A DNA stretch of 64,000 bases from a virus (taxonomy: Duplodnaviria > Heunggongvirae > Uroviricota > Caudoviricetes). A model generated the notes under the pieces. It ran no database searches. It saw only the letters and a program-made list of their open reading frames with translations, and had not been told where the DNA came from. Each line of letters begins with the position of its first letter. Within the stretch, counting starts at the first letter, position 1. The stretch lies in the IMG/VR virus record IMGVR_UViG_3300021254_000030. The stretch is one strand, 5' to 3'. This document shows, piece after piece, positions 24,682-57,886 of this stretch. Both the position numbers and the translations under genes were made by a program.

Positions 24682-25797
24682 ATGGAAAATTCAACACAAT
24701 TAAAGTTAGATTATACCATTTAGTCTCCCCAATAGCGAACAGCATTGGTACAACAAATTGTTGATTCTTTACCTCCTGAAAAATTAACAAACCGATATTT
24801 AGAAATAATGTCAGATTATATAATTTTTGCAATGACAAAAGAGGAACGAAAAAATAAAAATATAAATACAACAAATAGAATGGTGACAGTTAATAAGCGG
24901 GAAAGATCCTTTGAAGGGCTGGTAGAGAAATTTGAAAATGGAGAAGATGGTATTTATAATTTAATAACGGAAGATAAAAATATTATTTTTACTCCAAAAA
25001 TTTCTATTACTGCGGAAGATGTGTAGACTATCCCTGGCCTCAAGCAATTACAGGAAGCTATAGCGGAAGTAGAAGCCCGCGAGAAAAAAGCAAAAGGAAG
25101 AAAACGATTTCTTTTAAAACAACAAATCATACAATTAAGACAGGATCAATATGTTTTAAAAAATTCTTATAAACAACCTATAAACTGTTTAAATGGAATA
25201 AAAAATTTCTATACCATGAACTTTGATGATAATATTTTTATAAAAGAAAATGGTTAGATAGAAGATAAAAGTCTTATTTCTTTTATGAATCCTAAACACA
25301 TTTCTGCTCTTTTGTGTCATTATTCTCAATTAAAGGAGAATTGTTACGGAAAATTTTACGCTGACGGTTATTTTTTAATGGAGTCTTTAGATAAGATAGT
25401 TGATTAGACTTTTAAAAAAAAGTACCCTTTATATTATACTTTGCTTATTTATAAAATTGATGGGAAAACAAATTTATAGATTCAAAGTCTTTTAGAAAAA
25501 GAGCATGGCGTCCACTATTCTGTTGAGCATATATCCGCCTTGTGGCGTAATAAAATTCCTAAGATGGTTGCGGAAACTGCCAAGAAGAATTTTTTAACAT
25601 GGTATTATACGGAAAAGGCACGCGGGAAATGGAAAAAATGTTCACGCTGTGGATAGATAAAATTGGCGCATAATATTTATTTTTCTAAAAATAATTCAAG
25701 TAAAGATGGCTTTTATTCTATTTGTAAGGATTGCCGCAATAAAAAGAAAGACAAAGTAGTAAAAATAGTAAAAAGGATTCCGTACAAAGGAGATTAA
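24682..25797 (+). CDS. hypothetical late protein (371 aa, 7 in-frame TAG)
   Basis: Continuous frame through track ORF 24745..25026 to TAA at 25795-25797, interrupted only by TAG. Confidence 0.45.
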
Positions 25798-25798
25798 T

Positions 25799-27055
25799 AT
25801 GGCTAAAAGAACATGTTAGAAATGCGGGCGAACTATGGAAGATTTAAAGTTTTATTCTTACCGTAATGGTGAAAAAACTTAGATGTGTAAATAGTGTTTA
25901 ACCATGCATGTAGATAATTTTGATCCAGATACCTTCTTATGGATTCTTTAGAAACTTGATGTGCCGTGGGTTCCTATTTTTTGGAATAAAATTAGAGACA
26001 GAGAATATGCAAAACATGGTAATAAGTTAAAAGGAACTTCTGTAATTGGTAAATATCTATCTCAAGTAAAATTAAAACAATATAAAGAATATACATGGGC
26101 AAGAAGCGAAGAATTACAAAAAATAGTTTCCCAAAACAAAAATGTTGATAAAGAGGCGGAACTCTTTCGTCAGGAACAATTAAAAAAACAATTTGAAAAT
26201 GGTGAAATTAACGAAGCACAGTATAGGACTTTAACTGGCTCTGATTTTCAAAAGGAAAATGAATATATTGTTTTACCAAAACCTCCTGAGCAAGATGCAA
26301 TAGGTAAAGATAATGCTTTTAATGAAAATGATTTCTTCCCCGAGGAAGAGTTGCCTGATCTAGCGGCAGACCTTACTTTAGAAGATAAAAAATATCTTGT
26401 TATGAAATGGGGTCGTACATACAAAATGAGTCAATTAATTGAATTATAGCAAAAATATGTTGAAATGACAAATTCTTTTGACATACAAGATGCAGATAGT
26501 AAAAATTCTTTAATTCTTATTTGTAAAACATATCTTAAAATGAACGAAGCCTTGGATTGCGGAGATGTAGAAGGATATGGTAAATATAGTAGAACCTATG
26601 ATATGTTAAGGAAGTCCGCCAAGTTTACCGCAGCGCAAAATAAAGAAGAAAAGGGTGATGTCGTTGATTCAGTTGGTGAATTAGTTGCCTTTTGTTAGAA
26701 AAATGGCGGAAGGATACCTAGGTTTTAGATTAAACAACCTGATGCTATTGATAAAATTATTGATGATTTAAAAGCATATAATAGAAGTCTTATTTATGAA
26801 GATTCTGCTCTTGCAAGACAGATTTAGGATTTTTTGAAACAAGCAAGAGCACAACAAATGAAAAAAGAAGATATTAAAACGGCTAAAGAACAAGGCTTTG
26901 ATGTACCTCAATTAACAGAAGAAGATACATTAGCTTATAAAGAGTTTTTAAGACAGTAGGCAAGTGAAACTGATAAAATTACAAGAGGCCAAAGAGACCT
27001 CACTAATCCTATTGATGATATGCTCTTTGATGATACGGGAGGGCATCAAGAATGA
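25799..27055 (+). CDS. putative terminase small subunit / zinc-ribbon DNA-binding protein (419 aa, about 10 TAG)
   Basis: N-terminal CQKCG...CKQC ribbon. Same frame as track ORFs 25961..26449 and 26465..26698. Sits immediately upstream of terL and overlaps its ATG (ATGA). Confidence 0.35.
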
Positions 27056-27297
27056 GTTTACAAACATTATTAGATAATTCTCTTGCTTATGAAGGTAAAA
27101 AACAAGGTATATCAGAATAGAGATTACTTTAGCAATTAGATAATATAAGAGATAAAATTGCTTTTTTTAGATAGTATCCTGATTTATTTATTGATTTTAT
27201 ACAAGGTCCAGAAGGTACTTTTAAATTTCTTTATTACCAGCGGATTTTCTTACGAATTGTTATGCGGCATCGGTATGTTTATGCGACATTCCCCCGT
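27052..27297 (+). CDS. terL: terminase large subunit, exon 1
   Basis: MSLQTLLDNS...PDLFIDFIQGPEGTFKFLYYQRIFLRIVMRHRYVYATFPR is a typical TerL N-terminus. The frame then breaks where the intron begins. The exact 5' splice site is not determined. Confidence 0.45.
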
Positions 27298-28170
27298 AGA
27301 ATATGTGCGGGGTGAGAATAGTAATATTCTCAAAGGAAACCTATTGAATTGCTGGGAAGTCCAGAACGGATTATCAGCAGCTAAGTTATTTATAAGGAGA
27401 TTTTTATGGAGAAGAGAATTAGCGATCTCTACCCTGATATTAAAGATTGTTATATTATTGATGACATGGGTAAAATTCGTAATATTAATACAGGAAATTA
27501 TATAAAAATAAATAAAAATCATAACGGTTATATGAGAGTAAGTTTAATGAAAAAAAGTGGAGGAACAACTTCTATTCAATATCATAGATTATTAATGATG
27601 TTATTTAAGCCAGTAAAAGGAATGGAAAAATTACAAATAAATCATATAGATGGCAATAAAGAAAATAATACATTAGATAACTTATAGTGGGTGACTCCCC
27701 AAGAAAATATACATCATGCAATTAAAACTGGATTAACTAATTTTTCATATTTACAGGGAGAAAAAACTAATTTTTCTCATTATACTGAAAAAGATGCAAA
27801 ATTAGTAATAGATTTATTAAAGAGTAATAAATATACTGATAAAGAAATTTCTAAAATTACTGGTTTTCCTGTAAGAAGTTTTATAGCTAAAATAAGACGT
27901 AAAGAAACTTGGACTTATCTTACTAAAGATATAGATACTCCGTTAGGAAAAGCGGAAAGAAAAACTTTTACTTATAAATAAAAAGTTCAACGACTATCTC
28001 AGAAGAGAGTAGAGGAAAAGTTTCCTCGAAGCGGTAGGCTCCTTTAGTTCCAAGCTAAAGGATGATGATATAGTCTAATCTCTATGGGAACATAGAGCAC
28101 ACTTATGTGAATATAATTTAACGAATTATATTAAATATAAATAGCATATTCAAAATCATTTCTTTCCATG
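27298..28170 (+). mobile_element. group I intron in terL carrying an HNH homing endonuclease ORF
   Basis: P-like AATTGCTGGGAAG (27347-27359), Q-like ATCAGCAGC, R element GTTCAACGACTA (27985-27996), S element GATATAGTC (28068-28076). TerL exon frames are interrupted exactly here. Boundaries approximate. Confidence 0.5.
27406..27981 (+). CDS. HNH homing endonuclease (intron-encoded), one in-frame TAG
   Basis: GYMRVSL...QYHRLLMMLF...INHIDGNKENN then NL-[TAG]-WVTPQENIHHA. The conserved NLEWVTPKEN-type motif is split by TAG at 27688-27690. Confidence 0.6.
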
Positions 28171-29637
28171 ATGGCGTTGATGATTAGATGCGTTCTTTAT
28201 CCTGGTGCCGATTTGTTTGTAACAACTGGAGGCAAAGAGCAAGCTGCTTCAATTACGGTAGCGAAAATAGAAGAAATTTGCCGTTTGATTCCCGCACTTG
28301 CAAATGAGATTAACTGGGAAAGAGGAAAAACTAAAAAATCAAGAGATGACGTAAATTATGTATTTAAAAATGGTTCAAGAATTAGTATCCTTGCCGCAAA
28401 AGAATCTTCAAGAGGACAAAGAAGAACTGGCGGAGTCATGGAAGAATGTGTATTAATTGATCAGACAATGTTGAATGAAGTTATTATTCCTACTACGAAC
28501 GTTAATAGACAACTTGCCGATGGAACCCGTGATAGTAAAGAAGTAGTTAATAAATCTCAGATTTACATTACTACTGCTGGATGGAAGAACTCCTTTGCCT
28601 ATGATAAACTTATTGAGCTATTGATAAGGAGTTTAATTTAGCCGGATGAAGTTATGATAATGGGAGGAACTTATGAAACTCCTATTTTAGAAGGACTATT
28701 AGATGAGGACTTCGTAGAACAATTAAAATTATCTGGCACTTTTAATGAGGATTCTTTTGATAGATAGTATAGATCGTTATGGAGCGGCGATGCTTAGAAC
28801 GCATTTTTCTCTTCTTAGACTTTTGATAAACATAGAGTATTGCGGCAGCCGGAAGGAGAATATAGCGGCAGGTCTAGTCGATCAGCGTATTATGTTTTAG
28901 GAGTTGACGTTGGACGTATAGGATGTACATCAGAAGTTATGGTATTTAAATGTACACCACAGCCGCAAGGTGCATCAATAAAATCATTAGTTAATCTTTA
29001 TACTTTTGAAGCATAGCACTTTTAGCAGCAAGCTATTCATATAAAGAAAATTTATTATAAGTATAAAGCAAGAAAGATAGCTTTGGATACAAACGGTTTA
29101 GGTATTGGTCTTTTAGACTTTATGGTGCTTGCTCAAGAAACAGATGATGGAGATTATCTTCCTCCTTTTGGAGTTTAGAATGATGATGAGGGAGTATATA
29201 AAAAAATTTTTAAAGGAGTAAGTTAGTATTAGAAAGACGCAATATTCCAGATAAAAGCTAACGCTCCAATAAATACAGAAGCATATTCTTATACTCAAAC
29301 TCAAATGTCCAGCGGGAAAATAAAATTTTTAATTGATTAGGCATAGGCAAAAGCTAAACTTATGTAGACACGAACCGGTCAAAATATGACAGTTGATAAA
29401 AGGAATGATTATCTTCGTCCTTTTGTTTTAACAACTATTTTAAGAGAACAAATGTTAAATTTAGTAGAAGATAACGAGGGAGTAAATATTATTTTAAAAC
29501 AAGATAGCCGCGGAATTAAAAAGGATAAATTTTCTGCTTTTGTTTATGGATTATATTATATAAAACAAGAGGAAGAACGTAGTAGAAAAAAGAAGAAGAG
29601 AGATTTAAGTAAAATGTGTTTATTTACTCCATTTTAA
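28171..29637 (+). CDS. terL: terminase large subunit, exon 2 (ATPase C-terminal part plus nuclease domain), many in-frame TAG
   Basis: ...NGSRISILAAKESSRGQRRTGGVMEECVLID... Track ORFs 28168..28641 and 29386..29637 share one frame with only TAG between them. Exon start approximate. Confidence 0.5.
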
Positions 29638-29723
29638 TTTTTAATAAAATAAGGACAAAATTTTATAAAAATATTTTTTTAATTTTTATATATAAATAGT
29701 TAAAGAAAGGAGATTATATTTTT

Positions 29724-30083
29724 ATGAGATCTTCTCGTGCAGAAATAAAGATAGAATAGATTCTGCGATAGGCAGGATTAGATTTTAAGGAAGAATATAG
29801 TTTTCCTGATTTAATAGGACGAGGCGGGCATGCCTTACGTTTTGATTTTGCTGTGTTTAGTGATGATGAAGAACTTTGGTTTCTAATAGAATACCAAGGT
29901 ATTCAACATTATAAAGCAAAGAGTATTTTTGGCGGAATGTCTGGATTACATCAACAGCAATTTTATGATATGCAAAAAAGAGAATATTGTAAAAAACATG
30001 GTATCAAGTTAATTTTAATCCCTTATTGGGATGAATCTTTAATCAATTATGATTATATTATGAATTTAGTCGGAATAGGCTAG
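29724..30083 (+). CDS. PD-(D/E)xK-like (DUF559/Vsr-like) endonuclease-fold protein, 2 TAG
   Basis: RFDFAV...WFLIEYQGIQH...KREYCKKHGIKLILIPYW. RBS AAAGGAGATTATATTTTT. Confidence 0.4.
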
Positions 30084-30132
30084 TAAAAACAGGAGGCGGT
30101 AAAAATTGGTAAATAGAAAAGAAGAAATAAAG

Positions 30133-31764
30133 ATGAAGGGTTTTAAAATGGCCCCTTCAATGGAAACCAATGAATCCTACTCTCCTTCAACAGATTTTTC
30201 AAAAATAAAAGTAGGGGTAAAAACTCTTGCCGATGCTATTGTTAATTTAGGCTAGTTTAAAAGAATTAACCCAAAATTAGGAGATAAAACTGAAGTCTTA
30301 AAAGCTATTAACACTGGTAATATAAATAGAATGATAGATATTTCTAATTTCTTTTATAAAACAAGTGGTATTTATGCTAGACTTTGTCGTTATATGGCGT
30401 ATCTATATAAATATGATTGGTTTATTACTCCTTATGTAAAAGGTTGCGAGGGACTCTTAGACCCTGATAGCGGACTGGGAAGTATTGAAACAAGTGAAGA
30501 AGATAAAGAAAAAAAGAAGCAATTTACAAATTTCTTTAAAGTATTAAGATTCTTTGAGGCTTTTGAAGTTAAGAAATTTTGCGGAGAAGTTGCTTTAAAA
30601 GTAATTCGTAATGGTAGTTACTATGGATATTTGATTCCACAAAATAATAAAGTAGTTGTTCAATAGTTACCCGTAAAATATTGTCGTTCGCGCTTTAAAA
30701 TAAATAATAGACCAGTTATAGAATTTAATATGAAATATTTTAAAGATGCGTATCCTGATGAAACTCAACGATACCGCATAATTAAATTATTTCCTAAAGA
30801 TTTTCAAAAGGGATATAGACTATATATAAATGGAAAATTAATGCCTGATTTTCCAGGAGATGAGTCTGGATGGTATGTTTTAGACCCTCAAAGCACTATC
30901 AAGTTTAATATAAACGATGAAGATTATCCTGCTTTTATTGCTGTAATTCCTGCAATTATTGATCTGGATGCCGCGCAAGAATTAGATAGAAAGAAAATGG
31001 CGCAGAAATTATTAAAAATAATTATTCAAAAGATGCCATTAGATAAGAATGGAGATTTAGTATTTGATGTTGATGAAGCGCAAGAGCTACATAATAATGC
31101 GGTTCAAATGGTAAGCCGCGCGATTGGCGTAGATATACTTACTACTTTTGCAGATGTTGAAGTAGCAGATATGTCAGATAGAGGTACTACTACTACTGTT
31201 GATGATTTGGAAAAGGTAGAAAGAACAGTATTTAATGAGGCGGGTGTTTCTCAATTACAATTTAACAGTGATGGAAATATAGCTTTAAATAATTCTATTG
31301 CAAATGATGAGGCTTCTATGTATAATTTATTAACACAGTTTGAGTCGTTTTTAAATTTATTATTAGAACCTTTTAATAAATCTCCTAAACGTTGTTATTA
31401 TCAAGCGCAGTTTTTACCAACTACAATTTATAATTATAAAGATTTAGCAAAGCTATATAAAGAGCAGGCGCAAATGGGTTATACTAAAATGTTGCCGCCC
31501 GTTGCTTTAGGGCAGACCCAAAGTTCAGTTTTAGCTAATGCGTTCTTTGAAAATGATATATTAGATCTTGTTAGAGTCTTTGTTCCTCCGCTTACTTCTA
31601 ATACTATGAACGCGGAAGCCTTACAACAAAGATCGGCAGTAAATAAAGGAGATAGTGGTAACGCAAGCGGTACAAATAGCAACGGTAAAGAAGGCGTCGG
31701 CCGCCCAGAGAAGGATGATAAAGAAAAATCAGAAAAAACTATATTAAATAAATAGAGTATGTAA
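30133..31764 (+). CDS. portal protein (about 540 aa, 2 internal TAG plus TAG-N3-TAA at the end)
   Basis: Position after terL, size, and YKTSGIYARLCRYMAYLYKYDWFITPY. Track ORFs 30331..30666 and 30730..31755 are in one frame. Confidence 0.55.
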
Positions 31765-31773
31765 GGAGAAAAA

Positions 31774-33126
31774 ATGGCATTAACACATCAAAGCATTGCT
31801 ACGATAAATTCTCCAGAGTTTATAAACTTACAACCACTAGATATAAATCCTTTAATGTCCTCTTGTGAAATTAAAGTTTTTTATTTAGGAGAAAATCGTA
31901 ATGGTAGTTTTATATCTAAATAGGTTGCCGCGGAAATGGCAAAAACATTACGAGGAGCACCTATTGTAGGATATTATAAAAAAGATAAAAAAGATTTCGC
32001 TGACCATGGAGATCAAATGATATGGGATGATGAAGGAGTCCATTTCAATTGTTTAACAAAACCATACGGTTTTGTCTCTCCTAACGCAAAGGTTTGGTTT
32101 CAAGACTTTGAAGATACCGATGATTTTGGGAACACTGTTGTCAGAACTTATATGGTTACTTCAGGGTACCTTTGGACTGGTCAATTTGAAGAAGCAAAAC
32201 AAGTGTTTGAAGAAGGCGGAAAGCCTCATTCTATGGAACTTGATGAAAAAAGTTTACAAGGTCATTGGGCAAAAAATATAAAAAATGAAATGGAATTTTT
32301 CATTATAAATGACGCAATTTTTTCTAAGTTATGTATTTTAGGAGATGATGTAGAACCTTGCTTTGAAGGCTCTTCTATAACTGAACCATCTAATACATTT
32401 AATTTAGATAAAGATTTTTCAAACACTTTATTTAGTATGATGAAAGATTTAAAATATGCCTTAGAAAAAGGAGGACCAGAAATGGCAGTAAATAAAAAAG
32501 AAACTCCTGAAGAAGTAAAGGACACTTTTATTGAATCAACTTTTGAGAAAAAAGAAGAAGAAAAGAAGGAAGAAACTAATTCTAATTCTAATGAAAATGC
32601 ATCAAAAGAAAATGACAAGGAAGAAGAGAAGAAAGATAAGAAAGAATATTCTGCAAAAGATGATAAAGAAGATAAAGAAGAAGATAAGGAAAACAAGGAT
32701 TCTTCTGATGATAAGGAAGATGATAAAGAAGATGAAGATGAAAAGAAAAAATTCACTGCTTTATCTGCGGAATATCAGTCTTTATCTTAGAAATATGCAA
32801 AGTTAGAGGAAGAAATTACTTCTTTAAGAGAGTTCAAACAGAATATTGAAGATAAAGAAAAAGATGAATTAATTAGTCAATTCTTTATGCTAACAGATGA
32901 AGATAAGAAAGATGTTATTGAAAACAAATCTAAATATACTATTGATGAAATTAAATCAAAGTTAGCAGTAATTTGTTTTGATAAAAAGGTCAATTTTAAT
33001 TTAGAAGAATCTTCTGAAAATGAAGATAAATAGAAAGAAATAACAACTTTCAATGTAGTTGATACAGAAGATTCAACCCCAGATTGGGTGAAAGCTGTTG
33101 AATCTACTATGAATAGTAAATTTTAA
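31774..33126 (+). CDS. putative prohead protease/scaffold protein with KE-rich low-complexity tail (450 aa, 3 TAG)
   Basis: Gene order (portal, this gene, major capsid). Long D/E/K repeat region 32520-32760. Coiled-coil C-terminus. Confidence 0.4.
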
Positions 33127-33143
33127 TAGGAGGGAAACCAAAT

Positions 33144-33752: not shown

Positions 33753-33772
33753 TAAAATAGGAGGATAGAAAT

Positions 33773-34864
33773 ATGGCTTTAGATAGAAAAGAATTACAAG
33801 CATTAGCTAGAGCTACTGCTAAGGCTTCATTGAATCCTTCTGTTGCTTTTGCTTTTGGTGATAAGAAACTTGCCTATGAGGCATTAGATGAAACTTTTAG
33901 AAACGAAATGAATAACCTTGCGGGAACTTATGCTGAATACCGTGAGAATAAGAATCTTATTTTCAATTTAATTGAAATTGGATTAGATGAAATTCTTCCT
34001 GCAAAAGTTATGCAGAATTATGGTCAGTTCGCAGATGTGAAGACTTATGGTCAAGGAGACAAGCCTATTTTCCGTGTAAGAATTAGTGAAGCATCAAAGA
34101 AACGTGCTAAGAGTTTTGTAACAAGAGTTGGTCTAGCTGGTAGATATGAAGTCTTCAAGCTAGATGGATACACACTTGAAGTTCCTACCGCAGCATACGG
34201 CGGAGCAGCTTCTATCGGATTCGAGGAATTCCTTGATGGTCATATCACAATGAGTGATGTTTATGACTTAGTTTTAGAAGGACTTGATGAAGCTGTTTAT
34301 CGTGAAATTGCTAAGGCTCTTGTAGCAATGGCTCAAGATAGTGAATTTAATTCTTACAATAAAGCAAGCGTAGCAGGTTTTGATGAAGATGAATTTGACC
34401 GTTTAATTGCTACCGCGGATGCTTATGGTCAAAGTACTATTTATTGTACTTTTGAATTTGCGGCAACTATGCGTCCTAAGAATACAGCTATGTATTCAGA
34501 AGGTATGAAAGAGGATATTTGGAATAATGGTTATTTCGCAACTTATAAGAGACATAGAGTAATCGTTCTTCCTCAGAGCTTTGAAGATGCTACAAATGCA
34601 ATGAAGGTTCTTGATCCTCGTTATGCTTATATTATTCCTACTGGCGCAGAAAAGCCTGTTAAGGTTGCTTTTGAAGGTCAGACCGCAGTAAGAGAGCATG
34701 AAAATGCAGATTGGTCAAGAGAGATTCAGACTTATAAGAAATTAGGTGTTGCTGTTTATAATGTAAATCCTGGTATTTGCGTATATAAGAATACCGTTCT
34801 AAAGAAAGATAACGCTTCAAGATCTACTGGCGATCCTACTATTAGTAAGGTTATGACTGACTAA
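33773..34864 (+). CDS. major capsid protein (363 aa, no TAG)
   Basis: Position, size, strong RBS AGGAGGATAGAAAT, complete absence of TAG, strong terminator immediately downstream. Confidence 0.55.
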   Translation: MALDRKELQALARATAKASLNPSVAFAFGDKKLAYEALDETFRNEMNNLAGTYAEYRENKNLIFNLIEIGLDEILPAKVMQNYGQFADVKTYGQGDKPIFRVRISEASKKRAKSFVTRVGLAGRYEVFKLDGYTLEVPTAAYGGAASIGFEEFLDGHITMSDVYDLVLEGLDEAVYREIAKALVAMAQDSEFNSYNKASVAGFDEDEFDRLIATADAYGQSTIYCTFEFAATMRPKNTAMYSEGMKEDIWNNGYFATYKRHRVIVLPQSFEDATNAMKVLDPRYAYIIPTGAEKPVKVAFEGQTAVREHENADWSREIQTYKKLGVAVYNVNPGICVYKNTVLKKDNASRSTGDPTISKVMTD

Positions 34865-35964: not shown

Positions 35965-36981
35965 ATGGCAAACAAAAAAATAGTTCCAAAAGAACACCAA
36001 GATATTATTATTGATTTTTATGTAAATAAACAATATGGAATACAAAAGGTTATAAAAGAATTAAAAAAAATAGGTTTAAGTTATGGAGAAAGAGTAATAA
36101 AAAGGATTCTTCAAGAAAATAATATCCATATTCGTAATTTTAATGAAGCTAAAGTAGGAAGATATAAAATGGAAGTTCCTAAACAGCTTTAGCAAGAAAT
36201 TATTGAATTATATTAGAGAGGATATGGATTAGAAAAAATTGTAGAAATTTTAAATACATCTTTTTCTTTTGATAAAGTAAAATCTATTTTAATTGAAAAT
36301 GGTATTCATATTAGAAATTTACAAGAAGCCTCTTAGATAAAGGTTATGCCTGACTTGAGAAAATATTCTATTAATGATAATTATAATTTTCAAAGTCATA
36401 ATGGAGCATGGATTTTAGGAATATTTGCTTCAGATGGTTATCTACCAATTACCAAAGGAGCTAAGAATCGAATGATTTTAACATTACAAAGAAGAGATGA
36501 AGATTGTTTATCTTTAATAAAAGAAGAATTATAGTATACAGGACCTATTAATCAATATAATTCAACTTTAGGATACCCTAATTCTTCTCTTGCTTTTACT
36601 TCTTATAAAATTAGAAAAGAATTTGAAAGTTTTGGTATTGTAAATGCTAAAACTTTTAAATTAAAACATCTTCCATAGAATATAAAAGATGAATATATAT
36701 TAGATTTTATTCGAGGTTATTTTGATGGGGATGGAAGTGTTTATGAAAAAAGAGGATCTATAGCTTCAAGTTTTACTTGTGCTAATGAAACTTTTTTAGA
36801 AGATATAAAGAAAGTTTTATGTTAGAAGTTAAAGTTAGAAGGAGGGTCTATTTCTTTAAATCATAATGCATATTCTTTAAAATATGGAAAAGAAGATACT
36901 CTAAAAATGTGTTCTTTTTTTTATGATAATAATTATTTATCCCTTCCTCGAAAAAAGAAAAAATTTAATGCTTTAAGATAA
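35965..36981 (+). CDS. free-standing LAGLIDADG homing endonuclease with N-terminal NUMOD-like HTH repeats (338 aa, 7 TAG)
   Basis: GIFASDGYL and GYFDGDGSVY motifs. Tandem HTH modules at the N-terminus. Track ORFs 35965..36192 and 36346..36534 are in one frame. Confidence 0.6.
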
Positions 36982-46100: not shown

Positions 46101-49100
46101 ACCGTGCGGGAAGTTATAATTCTACTATTGATAATTTAACCGAAGATGAGAAAGCGCGTTATTTTGAATTAAGTAATTTAATTGCTCAATATAATGAGGG
46201 TGCTGTTGCAGGTTATGATGAACAAGGCAATGCTATTATTGCTAATAATGATGCTCTAAAAGAGACTATTTAGTTATTAAAAGAAAAACGTCGAGCATAG
46301 TTAGATTCTACTTATGATAGTGAAGAGTTTAGAAACGCAGAAAAAGGTAAACAAGTTCTTTACGATAACGCAAAAGACAAAAAAGAATTGAATGAAGGCC
46401 TGCTTGAAGATACTACTTCACATTTAACTAATCAATTATAGGCAAGAGGTCGCTCATTAACCGCAGCATTTGAAACCGCAGATAAAGATACTCAAGAGCA
46501 ACTATCAGCATATAATGAGCAATTAACAGAAATTCTTGCTGGTGGAGCAAAATAGATCTTTGAGAAACGAGAATAGTTAATTAAAATTTTTGAGCAATTT
46601 CAAGATAAAGGTTTACTTCCAGCAGATTTTACAGTAGCTTCTATTAATGAATTAAAAACTTTTAATGATTCTATAAAAGATATAGAAGGTAATATAAGTG
46701 ATGCATAGAAATAGATAAAAAATCTTGAAAGACTTAATATTCAAGAAATTACCAATATACTTCAAACTTCTAATTATGACAAATATTATTCTTAGTTAGA
46801 AGCAGCAGGTAATCAAAATATAAATGCAATTATAGCCGCTTATGCATCAGGAATGGATTCTGTTGATGAAAATGGAATACGGCTTACATCAGAGGCGGCC
46901 GCCCAAAAAATAAATGATGATTTTCTTTCAGTCTTTTCTGAAACGTTAGGTAAAGTTGATGAAGATACTGGTGTATCAATTTATCAAGGTTTTCTTGATA
47001 AAATTGCTAATGACGAAAATTTACAAAAAAATAATTTTTCATCATTACAAGAAAAAAATGCTTATATAAAATAGCAATTAGAGAATTTCTTTAAAGAAAA
47101 TCAAGATATGTTAAAAGGATTTGAAGGAGCTTCAGATAAATCTAAAGAAGCTATTTAGAAACTTTTAGCGAACGCTTTTAATATTTAGGATATTAATATT
47201 GATTTTAATACGGGAAAAATAGAATCTATAGCTAATGAGCGAATGTCTGCTCTTCACGATAGAATTAAAGAAATAGTTTAGAACGAGCGAGGAAAAGGTG
47301 CTGCAGGGTTATCTAATGATATTATTTCTTCATTATTACCTTCTGATATAGATGAAGCGTAGTTTGATTATATAATAGAGAATTTTGAAAGATTTTATAA
47401 AAAAATAGGAGATGCAAAGAAGGCTCTTGAAGAAGCTACTTCTTAGTCTTTAACTACATCAAATCTTTCTTAGAACTTAGGCACTTTAGGTTTAGCGAGT
47501 CGACAAAATCAAGGCTAGAATTTATCTCAAAAATAGACTGATAGTTTATTGCAAGGATTAGAATAGTTAGGAAGAATTTATCCATAGCTAGATTAGGCAG
47601 CTAATATTTTAGCTCAAGATCAGCTCGCAGGTACAGCACAATATCAAGCAGCTTTACAAGATGTTAATAATACTTTAATATAGAGTACTCTTCATGCTAT
47701 AGAAATGGCAGATGATGGAGGGGAAGCAATAAAAACAGCTTATACTGAAGGTCTTTCTACTGCTGCACAAGCTATTGACGCTTTTGAAGCTGGTATTTTA
47801 ACATCTGGAGATAAAATAAACGAATCTTTAGCTTTTACTGCAACAAAATTATCTGAACTAGATGATTTATTAGGATACGGGGCTATTTCAGGAGAAACTT
47901 TTGGGGCTGCTTTACAATCAGTATCTGACACAGAAGCTGCATCTTATGGATTAAATATTGATGAATATTAGAGTTATGTTGATCTTCTTCGTGCCACTAA
48001 TGAAGAATATGCAAATAATGAATTTTTAGCAAGACAAGTTGCTATTGCTAATGAGAGAATTGCAAAAGGAACAGAAGACTTAATAGATAATTGGAAAGAT
48101 TGGAATGATGCTATTTCTGATTATATTAATTCAGGTGATGATGTTTTAGCATTAGCTGATGACTGGGGAGAGTTGAAAGAAGCTATTGCCAATACTTTTA
48201 ATATGTAGCCTGAAGCGGTAGATATGTTAGGCCCCAATTTTGTAGCAGACAACTGGGATAAAATTCAACAAGTTAAAGATGGTGTTGAAGGAGCCTGGGA
48301 AGAGTTAGATGCTTTAATGAGTCAAACTCTAGTTCTTAATGCTTATGGAGTCGCAGATTTTTCTGAATTAGATCAAAATATACAAGATGCTTATAATGCT
48401 ATACAAGAATTAGATGGAACTAACGTTTCTATCGTGGCGGGTATGGAAGGTACTGATGATATATTAAATGCTTTCCAAACGATTGCAGACGGAGCCCATT
48501 GGACATCATCTGAAGCACAAGCTGCTTTTAGCCAAATGGGATATAGTGTAGAAGTTCAAGAAAAGCCTGATGCAATGCATAGTCAGACTGAAGAGACTCA
48601 ATACTATGTACCACCTACTTACACAATGGAGTCAGTGCCTTTTACTTTAGGCCCTTTTGGAACAACGGGAAGTATATCTTATCCTACAATTTCTCAAGAA
48701 GCTCACTATGAATCTGCCGGGGGAGGAACAAAATAGAGTTATGAGCCTGGAGCTTATACTATAAAATCAGTAACTTCTAACGGTAAATCTTCTGGTGGTA
48801 AAATATCCCGGAAAACAGTCGGCAATCATGGAGGAGGAAAATCTTCTGGTGGCAAAGGCGGAAGAGGTAAAAAAGGAAAGGGAGGAAAAGGTAAGAAAGG
48901 TAAATCTTCTACTCCTAAAACTCCGAAAACTTAGAAGTCGGTAAAAGATACTCAAGATCGTTACCATGATGTTAATATAAAATTAAAAGATATTGATAAT
49001 GAATTATCAAAAGTCAATAAAGAACAAAGCAAATTAACGGGTCCAGAGTTATTAAAAAATCTTGAATAGCAACAAAAACTATTAGATAAACAAGTTGCTA

Positions 49101-52027
49101 CCTATAAAGAAAAATTAGAATTAGAAAAACAATAGAGGGATTAGGTACGAAATAGATTAGCTAAATAGGGAGTTACTTTTGATCCTAGTGGTAATATCGC
49201 TAACTATTCTAATGCTCTTTCAAAAGCACTTGCCGATTATAATGCCGTAATAGCTAAATATAATCAGATGAGTGCGGAAGATCAATAGAAGAACAAGAAT
49301 ATGTTAGATAATGCTAAATAGAAATATGAAACTATTAAAAAAGATATTTAGCGTTATGATAAAATTGTTTCAGAAGAAATTCCTGGTCTTGAAAAATCTG
49401 TACAAGAGGCAATTGATAAACAAACTGAAATTAATATTGAAAAATTTAAAATAAAAGTTGATTTATAGCTAGATTTGTCTGAAGCATAGCGTGAATTTAA
49501 TTAGTTCCAAAATAAAGTTAAAAAACAGTTAAGAGACGATGACGTATTAGGTCAGGCCAAGGCTTCATTTAAAAACTTATCTTCTTATTACAAGAACGGA
49601 TATGACGTTATACAAAGTTTAACAGACCAAGTTCGTAATACGTTAACAGAAATTAATCAAATTGATAGCAGAGGGTATTCTGCGGTATACGGTAACAATA
49701 AGGCGGCCGCCCTTGAAGATTTAAAAAACTATATGAAATAGTTAATGAGCAATCTTTAGGACGTAGAAGATATAGTCAATAATATTAAAAATTCTATTTT
49801 TGATGCTATTGATAAAGCACAAGAGGCTTTTGATGAACAATAGAAAGAATATGAACAAATTACAGATTTAATTGACCATAATAAACAGGTTGTTTAGCTG
49901 TTACGCGGAGATGATGCCTATAAAGAATTAGAAAAGTATTATAAGTTACAATAGACGAATAATAATAAAGAATTAGATTTCTTACGTCAACAAAAAGATT
50001 TATGGTACAGTCGTATGAAAGAATAGGAAGTTCGCATGAAACAACTTCCTGAAGATTCTAACGAATGGAAATAGGCAAATGATAGATTTAAAGAATATGA
50101 AAAACATTGGTTAGATTCTTTAGATTCTTTAAACGATAAAGTTGAAGATGCTATTGAAAATATTATTGATAAATATACCAATGCTATTGATAAAGCCTTT
50201 GATAAATTAGAAAATAAATTAACTAAAAATAAAGGTTTAGAAAATATTTCTGAAGAATGGGAATTAATTAATAAGCAGGCGGACATGTATTTAGATCAAG
50301 TAAATTCTATGTATGAAATAGATAAACTTGAAAATGCATATCGTGATGCTATTAAAGACAATGATGGTAATTTAAAGGCTCAGAAATCATTAAATAATAT
50401 GATGAATGAGCAATTAAAGTTTTTACGAGATAAAGATAAATTAACTCAATATGATGTTGATAGAGCAAACGCTTTATTACAAATTGAAATAAAACGTTTA
50501 GCATTATAGCAGCAAAGACAAAGTAAAACTAAGTTAAGACTAAGACGTGACGCGCAAGGTAACTATACTTATCAATATACTGCGGATGAGGAAGCTAGCC
50601 AACAGGCTCAGCAAGAACTAGCGGACGCTGAAAACAGTTTATATAATATGACTAAATAGGCTTATAAAAATAACCTAGATTCATATTATGATACAGTAGA
50701 GGATTGGCAAGATAAAGTCAAAGATGTTTATAAAGATACTACATTAACTGTTGATTAGCAGCAAAAGAAAGTTGCAATGCTAAATGAATATTACGGCGAC
50801 ATTATTAATGGTCTAACTCAGAATAATGAAGATTTAAAGAAATACATGATGGAAGATACATTTAATGAAATGGCTAAAATGTATGATACCAATGTTGATA
50901 ACTTTAAAGCTATGACACAGGCTGAGAAAGATATTATAATGAAAGATATGGTTCCTTACTGGAAATCTGGTATCCAAGAAATGGCGGACGTGGTTGCGAA
51001 ATCTGATGGCGGATTCTTACCAGTAACGAAAAATGCTTTCAAAGAATTAGATAATGCCACTAAAGAATATGTTAATTCCTTAGATGATATATAGGCGGCC
51101 GCGCAGGTTAATTTCGATGCTGTTGCTAATGGAGTGGATAACAATATCGCAAAAACTGAAAATCTTTTAGATACTAATAATAAATTAATAGATGGCTATG
51201 ATAAAGAATTAGACAGAGTGCAAGCCGTAATCAATGAAGTTCAAAATTTAGTAGATACTTATAAACTTGCTAAAGATGAGGCTCTTGAAGCAACAAATGC
51301 CGCATATAAATTCATCCAAGCCGATTCAAAAAAGACTAAAACAGAAGCAAATAATAATAATTATTATGGCGGCAGTGGTGGCAGCACGGGAGGAAATAGT
51401 GGAAGCTCTTCTTCTGGTAACGGGAATAGTACAAGTAGCAACGGAGGAAGTAAGGCTAATAATACTTCTTCAGCTTCAGGAAACAAAACAAATAGTAGTA
51501 ATAATTAGAATGTGCTGTTTAGCGGAGCAGGATCAAAGATTACAAATGGAACTATTTTTAAAGTGAATGACCCAGAAGATCAAGGTATTTTAGCAGGTTC
51601 CGCGGCGTTGTAGGAATTAAAGAAGAAAAAGAATAGCAATAAGATTTCTCTTGTTGATTTAAAGAGCGGAAAGATTTCTTCTTATGCTTCTGGCGGATAT
51701 ACTGGAGACTGGGGTAACGACGGAAGATTAGCAATTTTACATTAGAAAGAATTAGTTCTAAACAAAGATGATACTTAGAACATCTTATCTGCAATCCAAA
51801 TCGTTAATCATTTAGATGATATATTAAATAGTTTTAAAATTAATACAAATTAGCAAACAGGTCTTTTAAATGAATTTACTCGTCGTTCAAGTGAACAGGA
51901 CGGAATTGGTCAAAATATTATAATCAACGCTGATTTCCCGGCCGCAAAAGACCATATGTAGATTGAAGCTGCTTTTGATAATCTCATTAATCGAGCAAGT
52001 CAATTCGCTTTTAAAAATAGACGATAA
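43118..52027 (+). CDS. tape measure protein (about 2969 aa; on the order of 100 in-frame TAG, no TAA/TGA)
   Basis: Track ORFs 44291, 46853, 47705, 48224, 50285, 50777 and 51134 all sit in frame 2 with ATG 43118. Hand translation of 43118-46900 shows only TAG interruptions. Hydrophobic segment at about 45840-45960. G/S/N-rich tract 51361-51508. Ends TAA TAA at 52025. Confidence 0.6.
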
Positions 52028-52157
52028 TAAAATAAGTAAGTTACAATTCTAATAAGATTGTAACTTACTTATAATTAATTATAATAAGGTCATTTTTTTA
52101 TAATTAATTATATGTTTTTTTAATTTTCTTTAAAAGAGGAAAAAGGAGAATTTATCA

Positions 52158-55100
52158 ATGGGAAGATAGAAGTATTAGGACGCACTTTTGTAGTCTATGT
52201 CAATCATCGCGGAAAATAGCGTTAAAAAAGCGTAGTATGATAAGACTATACAAGCTACTATTGTTAAATGTGTAGATCCTACTATATAGCAATATCAAGT
52301 AAAATATCAAGATAGCCATTGGTATGCTTATGGTAATGGGGCGGGTATTGCTTATCCCGTAGGGTCAAATGTATATATATTAGTTCCTAAAGGGGATATG
52401 TCTCAAATTAAAACTATTTTAGGAACAGTTGAAAAATTAGGAATTAATTATGTTAATCCTATTGCAGAAGAAAATAAATATGAAGAAACAGGTAATAACG
52501 TTGCAGAAAGTTTAATAGAAGGGTAGGAGTTTGGATTATGTTCTTATAAGACTACCGATAGTATAGTATTATATGGCGGAAAAAAAGATAAAATTACTAT
52601 TAACAATACAACTATGAAGCAATATATAAGAACTGCTACTCATATTTGTTGTTCTTTTGATATTAGAACTAATTTAAATTTTGAACAAAGATATAAAGGA
52701 AAATATGGAATAAGGTTTACAATAGAGGTTACAGATAAAACTACTCAAGCGAAAACTAATATAACTAGAACGTATACAATAGATACAGATGTAATGACTG
52801 GTAATCCTTATTTATTCTCAACTCCTATTAATCAAAAAATCTTTTTATAGATAGATGAAACTAATGCCAATAATTTTCAAAGGATAAGTAAAGTTGAATT
52901 ATTTTCTGAAGGATTTCCTATTACATCAAAAGAACAGAAGCCCGCAGACATATTTTTCTCTAATATTTCTTTCCAAGGAATGAAAAGATTAACTTAGGAA
53001 GAAATGAATACTGTAGCTTTATCTTTTGTTGCAAAAAAGGGTTATATCTTTTAGGAAAAGACTACTTTAAAAGAACTTCCTATATAGGCTGTTGTAAGAG
53101 CTAACGGGAAAGTTGTAAATAATGCTTCACAAAATATTAAATATTATTGGTTTATAAAAAATATAGGCGTTACCGCCAGTAGCCCAGAATATACTAAAGA
53201 AGGCGGGCAGGGTTGGTTATGTTTAAATTCTTACAAAAAAGTAGGAAATAATCGTGAATATAATTCTGGAAAGAAAAATTTTACCGTTAAAATAGAAGAT
53301 GTAAAAACAGAAGAAACTGTTTATAAATGTGTTATTATATATGGAGATTCTAAGTTTTCAAAAACTTTTAAAATTATAAATAAAAATGCAAAATATGTAA
53401 TTAAAATTACTTCTAATAAAGGTACAGAATTTTAGTATGGCATTGGTACACCAATTTTAACATGTCAAGTAAAAAATGAAAACAAGAATGTAACTTCGGG
53501 TATCGCATATATATGGTCTGTAAGTGATAAAATGGGTGTGTCAACTCCATTAACAGCATCGGGTAATCATATAGAATATGATGTTAGAAATATTATAGGT
53601 TTTAATACTATCTCTTGTACTGTTTGTACAGAAATAAAAGGTAAGTTGGGTGATGTTATTGGTACGGCGGAAATTACTTTGGTCAATAAAAAAACTTCAG
53701 ATGGTGGTTTTACTTTATTAATTAATAATGGTTAGCAAGTTTTTAATTATAATGAACAAGGATTAAGCCCTTGTAAAAATAAAACAGTTAATTTCACAAT
53801 TCCAAATTTAAGTTTTACATTATATGATAAAAAAGGACAGATAGTGCCGTTATAGAATATTCCTAAGTAGAATATAACTTGGTCAAGAACTAATACAAAT
53901 AGTAATAGCGCAATGATTGAATCATTAACTTTTAACGATAGACGTACTTAGGCTTATTATACGATTAGAGATTATTATAGAAGTAATACTAGCCATGATA
54001 ATATTAGATTAAGAATTATTTATGCAGGATATGAACTTACTGCAATGACTAATTTTTTATTTACTCGTTAGGGATACGCAGGAACAAATGGCACAGGTAT
54101 TGTTGCAAGAATTAATGTTCAATATAATAGTAATGTAATTAATAATAACTATGTTCCAATTATATATAAAAATTCTAAAAATTTTACTAGGTTAATTGCT
54201 TAGTTATGGGTAAATGGAGAGAAAATAAATACTAGTAAAATTACAACAGTTTGGTCAATTTTAAAGAATCCTACAGAAGAAACTTATATTAGAGTAAAGC
54301 AAGAAACAGAAGAAATTGGGAAAACAATTACACACCTTAATTCAGCAATAGTAAATAGACTTAAAGATGCAGAAAGTGGTGATGTAATACCTATTTCGCA
54401 ATATAAACAAAATTTTTCTAACATTGTACAAGTTACAATAATTTATGAAAGTAAAAGATATTATGCTACTTTACCAATAATAACGGCAGATTAGAATGGT
54501 AGCTATAAAATTTATTTAAAAGAAAATACTGGTTTTGATGAAGTCTTATATATGGATGATGGAACGTATCCCAGTTATACCAATAGACCTTTTTCTTTTG
54601 TTATTGTAGATAATAATAATGATGTTGTAACTGAAAATACACATTTTTATTATATTCATGACGACAATAGCAGTACAAAAGATGGAAAAACTTTAAAATT
54701 AATAAATATTGGACAGAACAATACTTGGAAAACCTGGATGGTTTATGGAGAAAATCGTAATTATACTCCTTCTCAAACTTTTGATGGACAAAGTACAGCA
54801 AAATATATAAATTGCAAAGCTATAATAACAAAAGATGGAGAAATTTCTAAAACTTTTTATATTAATGTTCCTATTTATCACCATTTAAATTTATATGGAC
54901 ATGCCGCAATTAATGAATGGAATGGTAATTCTATATAGATTAATGATAAGCATGATATTATTTTATCTCCTCAAATCGGCGCAGGAGGTAAAGATAAAGA
55001 TACAAATTCATTTACAGGAATTGTAATGGGTGCTGTTAAAAATAGTGAAGGAACACGCACCGGGCTTTTTGGATATAGTAAAGGTGCGCAATCAATTTTT

Positions 55101-56615
55101 TTAGATGCTAAAACGGGAAATGCTACTTTTGGACAAAGAGAAACTGGACAAATAGTAATAACCCCTAAATCTGGCACTATTACAGGAGGGGATTATAATT
55201 GGAGCAGTAAGACAAGCGGAGATGACCGTGGTAAAGGTATGCAAATTAATTTAGGCGAAAATCCTTATATTCGTTTTGGCTCACAAAAGTTTTATGTCAC
55301 ATCTGAAGGGAAATTATATGCTCAAGGCGGTGGTGAGATTGCTGGTTGGAATATAGGTGATAAAGATTTATCTAAAGTTATAAGAGATAAAGATAAAAAG
55401 ATAATAACTTCAGTAGGAATGAGTTCAAATCCAATTGATGCAAAAGATCCAAAAAAATATAATTTTGGGAATAGGGCTTTTTGGGCTGGTGACCAATTTA
55501 GAGTAGATTTTGATGGCAATACGAGAATGACAAGCTGTGAAGTGGGAGGAAATGTCCATATTAAAAAAGGTACAATCTATAGCGGAGAACATACAAAGCT
55601 TGATAGTGCTGAAAATGGATTCTTTTTATCTCAATCTGGAATTAGTTTAGGAGAGAATTTTAAAGTAACTTCAACAGGAAAAATGCTTGCAAGGAGCGGG
55701 TATATTGGAAATTCTACAAAAGGTTTTACAATTACAGATAACGCTATTACAAACGGAAAGTCAACAGCAGAAGATAAAAATAATGGTATTTATTTAGGAG
55801 TTGATGCTATTGCTTTAGGCCCAAAGCAAAATTTTTATGTAGATAATACAGGCGCATTAACTTCTCGAAAAGGAAAAATTGGTGGTTGGAATATTGCACC
55901 AAATGCTATTTATAACGATGCTGTTACAAATGTTGCATATGGAGATAAAAATGGAGTTTATAAAAGAGGTATTTATTTTGGAAGCGGCGGACTTCGTATG
56001 GGAGAACACTTCCACGTAGATTCAAATGGTAATTTATATGCAAATAATGGTCATTTTGAAGGATTCTTAAAAACAGGAGAAGGACAAATTGCAGGATGGG
56101 AAATTAAAACTGATCGTTTAAAGGGTGGCAATATTGAAATTAATTCTAACGGTTCTATGAAGGGGTCAAGATGGAATATTGATACTAATGGTAAAGCGAC
56201 TTTTTCAGATATAAATGTTACTGGCGGAAATTGGAAGAATGGTACTATATCTGGTGGAAGTAGAACTGGCGGCAGTATTTCTGGAGGAAGTATTAGTCCA
56301 AGCAATGTAAAATGTGGTAATCAAACTATGAATCAATGGTGTAGCAATACTGCCGATACTAGAATAAAAGCTCTTTTTGTAGATCAGTTAGATGCACATA
56401 AAGCTCATATTGTTGATCTTGTCGCTAATTCTGTTAAAACAAAAATTTTGAAAGTTAATGGGACACAAGCGAAATGGCGTAGTTTAAGTGTTGTAACAAA
56501 AGTAGTAATAACACCTCATTATGGAAATACTCCCACTGGACAAACTTTTCTTACCTCAGTGTCTCCCAATGTAAGTAAACAAACTATAATGTTCTTAGGA
56601 TTAAAAATTAGTTAA
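52158..56615 (+). CDS. distal tail protein and tail-associated host-specificity/fibre protein, read as a single 1485-codon ORF (about 30 TAG)
   Basis: Track ORFs 52614, 53532, 54552 and 55026..56615 all share frame 0 with ATG 52158. GGW-containing repeats (KIGGWNI, EIAGWNIG, QIAGWEIK) are typical of tail fibre/Tal proteins. May be two genes not separable here. Confidence 0.45.
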
Positions 56616-56630
56616 TGGAGAAAATTATAT

Positions 56631-56861
56631 ATGGAAAATATAAATTTAAAATCTGAAGCATTTAGGCAAGCTATTTATGATTTAATTAATAAAAGTAATC
56701 TTCCAGTTTCTAATATTTATTTTATCCTTACTTTATTACAAAAATAGATAGAATTACAGTACTATGGTTCTTTAAATGAATTATTACTAAAAGAAGGATA
56801 GATAAATTAGCAGACAGGAGAAGAATTTCAAAGCTAGAATGAAACAAAAGGAGAATAGTAA
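56631..56861 (+). CDS. small hypothetical protein (76 aa, TAG near the end then TAA)
   Basis: RBS GGAGAAAATTATAT. Confidence 0.3.
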
Positions 56862-57886
56862 TGGCAAAACGAATGACTGAATTTTATCAAAAAGAGGTCA
56901 CGGGCTAGTTTACAGGACCTATTAAGATAGGGTCTTCCGCAGAATATATAACAATGGAAGATACAGATTCCGCAGAGACTTTAAAAGATTTTTCTGGAAG
57001 AGTAGGAGACCCAAGTAATTTATATAATAATGTAGATAAAGAAAAAGACTAGCAAAAAGATTTAGTAACAACTGTAAATGAATTAACTGCGGCAGTTGCA
57101 GCTGGTGCAAAAATATAGGATAAAAGTATTTAGCAAAGTAAGCTAAAAGATATAAAAATTGTAGATTCTACTGCTAGTTATCCTGCAATTACTGATGGAC
57201 CATTAGGTAATATTCTTGGAAAAATAAAGAAATTTCTAAATGATTTAAAAAATAATAAAGTTTCTAAAACAGGTGACACAATGACAAGTTCATTAAGTAT
57301 TAAAGGAGGATATATTTTAGCAAGCCGCGATGATAGTTGGTGCTATCTTGAAGCTAAAGGAGCAGGCGAAACAAGGGCACGATTAATGTCTGCACAAAAT
57401 GGTGATAGTGGACTCTATAGCGCCAAAATAATTAATAATAGTACTATTGGAAGATGGATAGTTAAACATTTCTGGAATACAGAAAAAACTATAATTCCCA
57501 CTTTATCTTTTGACGAAAATTTTGGAATTGTAGGAAAAATAGGAGATTCAACTGTAACAGCAATAGGAGTAAGATATTCTAATGCTATAGCTGATACCAA
57601 TGTAAAATATTGTTTTATTAAACAATTAGGTAATACTATTTTCATGACTATGAGTATTGCTTATACAACTACAGATGGGACAATTCCTACTGGCACAACT
57701 TTACTTACTGTTCCCAAAATATACGCGCCAGCTTCTACTCAAAGGTTGCCCGCCTTTTTTGCATTTAAAAATTCAACTACTCCACACGGCGCAATGATTT
57801 CTATTGACTCTAATGGAGCAATCCAACAGGGTCATTCTAGTTCTACTAATAGTATTTATTGTGTAGGTATGTGGGAAAAGAAATAA
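56861..57886 (+). CDS. tail fibre / receptor-binding protein (341 aa, 5 TAG)
   Basis: NKVSKTGDTMTSSLSIKGG motif typical of phage tail fibre proteins. Same frame as track ORF 57281..57886. Confidence 0.5.

Follow-up and report, generated by a model that had tools for sequence, protein, structure and literature searches.

What does the codon TAG stand for in a virus whose late genes are studded with it? The question is raised by a 64,000-nucleotide stretch of DNA (here called the window) from a tailed virus of the class Caudoviricetes, IMG/VR record IMGVR_UViG_3300021254_000030, in which the frames of a long rightward operon are interrupted time and again by TAG and by neither of the other two stop codons. 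A preliminary description, made from the letters of the window alone, saw in this a code resembling translation table 15, in which TAG stands for glutamine. As set out below, TAG is indeed a sense codon in the structural, packaging and several of the nucleotide-metabolism genes of this phage, but comparison with its relatives indicates that UAG has very probably been reassigned from stop to glutamate. The fuller explanation, which joins this reassignment to a suppressor tRNA of the glutamate type and to a split between early and late genes, is the best on offer and is highly likely to hold as a whole.

TAG is a sense codon in the late genes

The 25 plus-strand genes between positions 24682 and 57886 comprise 10,143 codons, of which 185 are in-frame TAGs and none is TAA or TGA; at the rate with which these two triplets occur off frame in the same DNA (8.6% of codons), about 875 of them would be expected. 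This bears out the earlier claim that the late-operon frames are broken by TAG only. The longest frame free of TAA and TGA spans 8,910 nt, whereas none in 100 shuffles exceeds 615 nt, and the probability of finding neither triplet in 2,969 codons is about 1e-116. This is the tape measure gene, correctly described before as a single frame, though with a count of roughly 100 TAGs that comes down to 81. The distal tail or fibre frame is likewise continuous over its 1,485 codons and 19 TAGs, as had been said. For the genes of the terminase large subunit (TerL), the portal, the scaffold and a LAGLIDADG endonuclease, the reported pattern stands as far as the TAGs go (15, 3, 3 and 6, respectively), but TerL is not one frame, being split by an insert of about 846 nt with an open reading frame (ORF) for an HNH endonuclease.

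Coding density tells the same story. With a simple gene call, it rises over 24682-57886 from 0.44 under code 11 to 0.92 when TAG is taken as sense, the kind of gain that had been foreseen, and from 0.58 to 0.90 over 57900-64000; between 8 and 24.6 kb it is unchanged (0.50 vs 0.52). The combined length of the plus-strand ORFs that reach 200 codons is 8.5 kb with three stops and 33.6 kb with TAG as sense. Freeing TGA brings almost no such gain, and freeing TAA only the gain expected for AT-rich DNA. Under the standard code the late genes fall apart into 42 calls with a median of 87 amino acids (aa), just the miscalling that was warned of. TGA or TAA as a sense codon was also considered for the ORF-poor stretch at 8-19 kb and rejected, as the gain there did not exceed AT-rich chance and the stretch holds small minus-strand genes.

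Alignments to PHROG, Pfam and PDB entries run on across the TAGs, as anticipated, in the families phrog_5767, phrog_2739 and phrog_4211 and in dUTPase, the guanylate-kinase-like protein (Gmk) and the anaerobic ribonucleotide reductase NrdD. More than 30 related contigs from other samples preserve the same frames, with TAGs at differing positions and without TAA or TGA. The motifs said to span TAG codons in the HNH endonuclease, dUTPase, Gmk and NrdD are all real, but the last three had been placed in the rightward operon and in fact lie to its right, on the minus strand. Genuine stops to the right of 24.6 kb are TAA (28 of 36) or TGA (the other 8), again in agreement with the preliminary description. 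In five genes (29724-30086, 30106-31764, 56631-56861, 62941-63516 and 3328-3687) a TAG stands one to three codons ahead of the final TAA or TGA, and these may be former TAG stops now backed by a second stop. The TAG-bearing late genes are not pseudogenes.

TAG columns resemble glutamate columns

The clearest view of the residue comes from TerL, for which the DNA of 19 relatives was aligned codon by codon. In 35 of the 38 columns that contain TAG, GAA or GAG (GAR) is also present; CAA or CAG (CAR) is present in 4. Across the 13 full-length TerL genes the sum of GAR and TAG is almost constant, at 47.1±1.6, vs 36.6±8.1 (range 19-43) for the sum of CAR and TAG, and the numbers of TAG and GAR codons trade off closely (r = -0.97). 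Two relatives free of TAG (L011 and L008) encode a TerL with 47-48 Glu and 19 Gln. Where TerL has its 15 TAGs, database homologues mostly have E, and their overall numbers of Q and E are inversely related. A public protein collection (P0001-P0120) includes full-length TerL proteins of this clade with Q at the TAG sites, their Q content ranging over 30-50 and their E content over 21-41, the one rising as the other falls; this trade-off suggests that the database had translated TAG as Q.

The same preference is found beyond TerL. In 22 window proteins encoded near it, the partners of TAG are E (.46), TAG itself (.17), D (.08), K (.05), A (.05) and Q (.04), a profile that resembles that of E and not that of Q. 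When each of 59 TAG columns in the window is counted once, the log-likelihood of Glu exceeds that of Asp by 49 units and that of Gln by 70. A second set, drawn from the tape measure and distal tail genes with 11 other loci, provides 99 TAG columns, in which Glu leads Asp by 53 and Gln by 67. Over both sets the majority partner is E in 79 of 158 columns and Q in 6. Codon alignment of the tape measure gene with 11 relatives gives 78 TAG columns with a partner other than TAG, and E is the majority in 40 of them. As a control, phAss-1 has its TAG positions on invariant Gln columns (5) and Lys columns (5), and the outcome is Gln, as published (PMC10607447).

Individual sites and overall composition can be added to this. 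The TAG within the Gmk motif TTRPPRPY-TAG-ADG lies opposite the E of PRPGE or PRPSE in all four solved kinases shown. With TAG counted as Glu, the Glu content of the late genes is about 8.3%, vs 8.1% in the early genes. TAG makes up about 22% of the Glu-type codons in the late operon (29% in the tape measure gene), where it seems to have displaced GAG. The table 15-like code of the preliminary description, with TAG as Gln, is accordingly not borne out: TAG behaves as Glu, the suppressor described next is of Glu type, and the Gmk site faces E.

A suppressor tRNA of the glutamate type

Searches of the window for a suppressor tRNA with ARAGORN (also at lowered thresholds and with introns), with Rfam at its gathering score and with Rfam by E-value over 6-24.7 kb returned only a tRNA-Asn and noise. 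The window is part of a siphovirus-like phage genome of about 140 kb; a contig of 140,477 bp in ENA contains it, circularly permuted relative to the window. About 27 kb beyond the window were read as well, which brings the sequence read to some 91 kb. To the left of the window, at a distance of 5-17 kb, is a cluster of 29 tRNA genes, encoded like nearly all early genes on the minus strand. The one tRNA(CUA) in the sequence read is found at L028 15473-15548, on the minus strand of the same contig, about 13.5 kb to the left of position 1.

Its structure points to a tRNA-Glu. The suppressor has G1·U72, A73, a D stem of G10-U11-C12 paired with G23-A24-C25, an 11-nt D loop, a 4-nt variable loop, U35 and A37, and it has the first five acceptor pairs and the D stem in common with the tRNA-Glu(UUC) of the phage. 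The phage tRNA-Gln has U1 and a D stem of GCGU/GCGC. The suppressor is without U1-A72, without G73 and without the Gln-type D arm that suppressor #2 of phAss-1 has. When IMG/VR was scanned for the D-arm pattern without regard to the anticodon, the 122 matches listed comprised 88 with UUC, 24 with CUC, 9 with UUU, one with CUA and none with a Gln anticodon. A naive-Bayes isotype classifier, trained on 522 phage tRNAs described by 22 structural features and with a leave-one-out accuracy of 0.84, assigned both suppressors of the clade to Glu, with Glu minus Gln at +20 and +18 nats (+15 and +13 when the D-arm features were dropped), and suppressor #2 of phAss-1 to Gln. Bacterial genomes scanned with the exact 18-nt D arm of the suppressor gave 54 matches, all in coding DNA and none in a tRNA, and segments around relatives of a small protein of the tRNA cluster (P0134, P0148 and P0127) contained no CUA tRNA.

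Published identity rules suggest how such a tRNA might work. Recognition by glutamyl-tRNA synthetase (GluRS) involves U11-A24 and the absence of nucleotide 47 (PMC9976931), and the amidotransferase GatCAB depends on U1-A72 and does not accept the additional D-loop base that tRNA-Glu has (PMC2811023); both rules fit the suppressor. The GluRS of the host would charge it with Glu, given that U35, A37, U11-A24, a short variable loop and a long D loop are kept, and GatCAB would leave this Glu unconverted to Gln because of G1 in place of U1-A72 and because of the enlarged D loop. Decoding of TAG by a tRNA-Glu derivative and GluRS is a probable mechanism on these grounds.

Glu-type amber suppressors may occur in other viruses too. 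An unrelated IMG/VR contig (L205, GC content 51%) contains a tRNA(CUA) with a tRNA-Glu-type D arm, GGTCAAGCGGTTAAGAC, although its placement by the classifier is not clear.

Alternative explanations

Were the TAGs real stops, the sequence would have to come from a decaying prophage or a misassembled contig, and the fragmentation of the late genes under the standard code is what such a reading would lead one to expect. It is next to impossible given the complete lack of TAA and TGA in the same frames, the intact frames of the related contigs, each with TAG positions of its own, the presence of a matching suppressor tRNA, and the recovery of the same genome by independent assembly in several data sets. 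Pyrrolysine is no more credible as the meaning of TAG. ARAGORN does label the CUA tRNA 'tRNA-Pyl', a label prompted by its anticodon only; the architecture of tRNA-Pyl is unlike the ordinary cloverleaf seen here, with its 11-nt D loop, 5-bp anticodon stem and 4-nt variable loop. Besides, the TAG columns pair with Glu, and there are no pyl genes (pylS or pylBCD) in the roughly 91 kb read.

Glutamine, inserted by an amber suppressor that accepts Gln as it is in crAss-like phages, Lak phages and phAss-1, deserves a fuller hearing. TAG to Gln is the sole TAG reassignment reported for phages (PMC9523058), the related phAss-1 has been assigned Gln, a public protein database already puts Q at TAG in these very genes, and amber suppressors are cited in the literature as often glutaminylated in E. 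coli. Code 15 is nevertheless very unlikely to apply, as the TAG columns pair with GAA and GAG and not with CAA and CAG, Gln fits worse than Glu by 67-70 log-likelihood units in two independent sets, the sum of GAR and TAG is conserved between relatives when that of CAR and TAG is not, the suppressor is without the Gln features listed above, and the same method does return Gln for phAss-1. A softer version is mixed decoding: some copies of the CUA tRNA would carry Glu and others Gln (through GlnRS, for example, or incomplete transamidation), or UAG would be read through only part of the time, and the proteins would be mixtures. Exchanges of E and Q are usually tolerated, TAG is avoided in highly expressed genes (the capsid gene and 40299-41339), which fits a costly or imperfect decoding, and in several genes a terminal TAG is followed within a few codons by a TAA or TGA. 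On the other side, TAG substitutes in as Glu-like a manner as true Glu codons do, TAG occupies the conserved Glu of the Gmk PRPGE motif, and 81 TAGs in a gene of 2,969 codons demand very efficient read-through. That TAG yields Glu together with some Gln, or with some termination, seems unlikely on balance.

Glutamate has its own difficulties, which are best stated together. The identity of the residue at TAG is deduced wholly from how codons substitute for one another. In about half of the TAG columns the majority partner is a residue other than E, such as D, K or A, as also happens in ordinary E columns of these fast-evolving proteins. Of the four alignments shown for dUTPase, two have E and two have T opposite the TAG in motif III, and a TAG of NrdD lies opposite I in the alignment to 4coi. 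Both sites were considered as evidence for the amino acid and set aside, their TAGs being at variable positions; they support read-through only. As for the tRNA, its similarity over the whole sequence is 0.73 to tRNA-Glu vs 0.72 to Arg, so negligible a margin that the nearest-neighbour isotype by whole-tRNA identity, for which Glu came out best, was not relied on. The suppressor also supplied the D-arm pattern with which the tRNA-Glu reference set was enriched, and its first pair is G1·U72, not G1-C72. For the GluRS of E. coli, U34 and C36 are strong determinants; both are changed in the CUA anticodon, so that charging by the host enzyme is no more than plausible. A phage synthetase, a release factor or a second suppressor may also be encoded in the roughly 49 kb outside the sequence read.

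Distribution of TAG and a possible early/late switch

Recoding had been described as a property of the late genes. It is module-specific, in that a convincing in-frame TAG is absent from all 37 early genes at 5.5-24.6 kb, but it is not confined to late genes, extending as it does to the minus-strand nucleotide-metabolism genes and to genes left of 5 kb. There are no TAGs in DnaE (1,310 aa) or a helicase, 3 in RecJ, 2 in NrdD, 3 in dUTPase and 4 in the Gmk-like protein, and none in the two most highly expressed structural genes, those of the capsid (33773-34864) and of a virion protein (40299-41339). Early genes end in TAA or TGA in 35 of 37 cases, and one of the two calls that end in TAG has a genuine stop common to its homologues. 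The homologues of this gene (12946-13395, minus strand) in L011 and L027 end at the same position or within 3 residues of it, and the 61 codons beyond its TAG have no homologue; TAG is therefore still a stop there, since the homologues end at or near the same position.

According to a published proposal, recoding holds back or locks the late functions for as long as no suppressor has been made, and this layout agrees with it. Early in infection TAG would still terminate translation. Once the tRNA cluster is expressed, the TAG-containing genes would become translatable in full, the first of them being the sigma-like factor that opens the late operon and itself holds 7 TAGs. In this way TAG would time late functions, or lock them, at the level of translation. 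The chances that it has such a role seem about even, and the case for it, drawn from gene layout, is to be set beside the difficulties listed above.

Relatives and known recoding systems

The phage is distantly related to phAss-1 and Enterococcus phage EF1. In tblastn searches, its capsid protein is 51% identical to that of phAss-1 (OQ749652), 61% identical to that of a 12 kb faecal fragment and 35% identical to those of Enterococcus phages such as EF1. TerL and its neighbouring proteins can be aligned to the phAss-1 locus (L001), and the genes for the capsid, the portal, TerL and a very long tape measure protein are all present here, in the order found in the phAss-1/EF1-like large siphoviruses. 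A megablast search of GenBank phages with 21 kb of the operon gave no match at the nucleotide level.

Code-15 phages, in which TAG is Gln, include crAss-like phages, the Lak megaphages and phAss-1 ('Phassvirus') (Borges et al. 10.1101/2021.08.26.457843; Peters et al. PMC9523058; Babkin et al. PMC10607447). Here, as in those phages, in-frame TAGs are concentrated in genes of the structural, packaging and lysis type, the early genes are compatible with the standard code, and a phage tRNA(CUA) sits inside a large tRNA cluster with no dedicated synthetase seen. The differences lie in the amino acid, Glu rather than Gln, and in the tRNA body, which is that of a tRNA-Glu rather than a tRNA-Gln. PhAss-1, published as a phage with TAG as Gln and three tRNA-Sup(CTA) genes (PMC10607447), is the true relative among them, with a genome of similar size and a tape measure protein of more than 3,000 aa (3,149 aa, against 2,969 aa here). 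Its CUA tRNAs number three, one clearly of Gln type, compared with one in the sequence read here, and its TAGs fall on conserved Gln columns where those of the present phage fall on Glu columns.

UAG as Glu is established in the nuclear codes of peritrich ciliates (NCBI table 30) and Blastocrithidia (table 31), where UAA is Glu as well. The likeness is in the use of a tRNA-Glu derivative with a stop-cognate anticodon, for which the evidence here is comparative. Those codes are genome-wide in eukaryotic nuclei, whereas the present one is confined to a virus whose host presumably uses the standard code; UAA is never found in frame here and is the commonest stop (28 of 36 right of 24.6 kb); and TAG still ends at least one early gene. 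Code-4 phages (Jade and Agate, with TGA as Trp) are alike in that one stop is reassigned in the virus specifically, with a phage suppressor tRNA and a proposed role in late or lytic timing, but the codon and the amino acid are others, and some of them have a TrpRS and an RF1 of their own, of which there is no sign in the sequence read. The E. coli collections of engineered amber suppressors include tRNA-Glu with a CUA anticodon, partly mischarged with Gln in E. coli. These laboratory tRNAs have the same combination of tRNA-Glu body and CUA anticodon, although the natural one appears to have been selected to deliver a residue equivalent to Glu.

Implications

Phages with a code differing from that of the host show only TAG to Gln and TGA to Trp in the main survey, and full-text literature searches (with subscription journals outside their coverage) found TAG to Glu in no phage or bacterium. 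UAG is not known to be Glu outside the eukaryotic nuclear codes of tables 30 and 31, in which UAA is reassigned too. The field assumes two outcomes for phages, and a natural UAG to Glu would be a third. If it is true, whether Glu or Gln results would be set by which of the two tRNAs supplies the suppressor, and the phage would offer a testable case of a suppressor that uses the shared Glu/Gln charging pathway yet escapes amidation. There are practical consequences as well. Gene callers set to table 15 would put Gln for Glu at about 1.8% of late-protein residues (2.7% in the tape measure protein), and a public protein collection would already contain mistranslated sequences from the clade. A natural amber suppressor that inserts Glu, from a phage whose host probably belongs to the Bacillota, could find use in genetic-code engineering.

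One may speculate, with some doubt, that this phage family is a hotspot of genetic-code change, in which sister lineages have come to read UAG as Gln (phAss-1) and as Glu (here), each by way of a different tRNA and a one-base change at anticodon position 36. Two further tRNAs were seen among the relatives. In a close relative (L089 2186-2257, IMGVR_UViG_3300001487_000194), a tRNA(UCA) takes the place of tRNA-Arg(UCG); it is the same tRNA with its anticodon loop changed from CTTCGGA to CTTCAAA, the classifier assigns it to Arg, and it may be an opal suppressor that inserts Arg. In a more distant relative (L027 18079-18154, IMGVR_UViG_3300021431_000113), a tRNA(UUA) has a tRNA-Glu-like body with the D arm GTC-AAGTGGTCTAA-GAC, its D loop is identical to that of a tRNA-Glu of L032, and a tmRNA gene adjoins it. 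These two tRNAs could mean codes with UGA as Arg, and even with UAA as Glu, in viruses of bacteria.

Genes of the window

The features of the window (GC content 33%) are collected in Table 1.

Table 1. Coordinates of genes and other features in the 64,000-nt window
Feature	Position	Strand	Length	TAG codons	Basis and remarks
Glyco_hydro_114-like protein	201-974	-	257 aa	4	Gene call
Early-type region, ~37 small genes	5500-24600	-			Nearly all genes on the minus strand; no convincing in-frame TAG
tRNA-Asn(GUU)	11937-12010	-			tRNA search; only tRNA within the window
Early gene with genuine TAG stop	12946-13395	-	149 aa		Homologue ends
Sigma-factor-like protein	24682-25797	+	371 aa	7	phrog_5767 'sigma factor', E 1.8e-48, residues 24-355 across TAGs; first gene of rightward operon
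Protein matching phrog_3314	25799-27055	+	418 aa	9	phrog_3314, E 8.6e-40
TerL exon 1	27052-27297	+	82 codons	3	Translation; ends ...YVYATFPR
TerL insert	27298-28143	+	~846 nt		Boundaries from protein alignment, possibly a few bases off
HNH endonuclease ORF in TerL insert	27406-27981	+		1	Pfam HNH_3, NUMOD4; NL-TAG-WVTPQEN
TerL exon 2	28144-29637	+		12	phrog_24618, phrog_15503, phrog_5909 terminase large subunit; codon alignment with 19 relatives
Portal protein	30106-31764	+		3	phrog_2739, E 6.4e-73, residues 121-540; last TAG followed by two codons, then TAA
Acidic scaffold-like protein	31774-33126	+		3	Translation; lies between portal and capsid genes; putative function
Major capsid-like protein	33773-34864	+	363 aa	0	phrog_4088; tblastn to phAss-1, EF1
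LAGLIDADG endonuclease ORF	35965-36981	+		6	Pfam LAGLIDADG_3, E 4.1e-10
Virion structural protein	40299-41339	+	346 aa	0	phrog_2729, E 4.8e-51
Tail tape measure protein	43118-52027	+	2,969 aa	81	phrog_4211 (residues 74-534), phrog_34405 and others so named
Large distal tail or fibre protein	52158-56615	+	1,485 aa	19	Putative function, from position only
Last operon gene	56861-57886	+	341 aa	4	Gene call
dUTPase	58509-58952	-		3	PDB dUTPases, E 3e-32, alignment across all three TAGs; motif III DSDYRG-TAG-VIV
NrdD	60709-62664	-	651 aa	2	PF13597 on database gene call; 4coi alignment across TAG
Guanylate-kinase-like protein (Gmk)	62941-63516	-		4	PF00625

The insert in TerL is probably a group I intron. 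A local search placed the Rfam model Intron_gpI at 27912-28097, with E 1.6e-7 and a score of 36.7 bits, below the gathering score of 50. The spliced TerL has 579 aa and 15 TAGs, in line with 120 database homologues of 574-592 aa, and the homologue P0001 is 100% identical to it outside the TAG sites. The insert is polymorphic, a near-identical phage in the database having an uninterrupted gene. Around the LAGLIDADG ORF, which is placed between head-completion genes and has relatives alignable along its whole length, Rfam gave no intron match. The distal tail or fibre protein has no PHROG match.

The early region differs from the rest of the window between 8 and 19 kb, where the GC content is 39-43% vs about 30% elsewhere and where 16 perfect (12/12) sigma-70 consensus promoters, of the host type, are found on both strands. 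Eight promoter-like sites on the plus strand, seven perfect and one 10/12, lie at 9315, 10372, 11803, 12833, 14210, 14995, 16061 and 16898. Within about 8 nt of each stands a GC-rich hairpin of about 13 bp, followed by GGCAAAAAA. The hairpin stems vary among the eight copies yet are still paired, with compensatory changes in 6 of 11 pairs. Nearly all genes at 8-19 kb are on the minus strand, so that the products of these plus-strand promoters would be short convergent or antisense RNAs.

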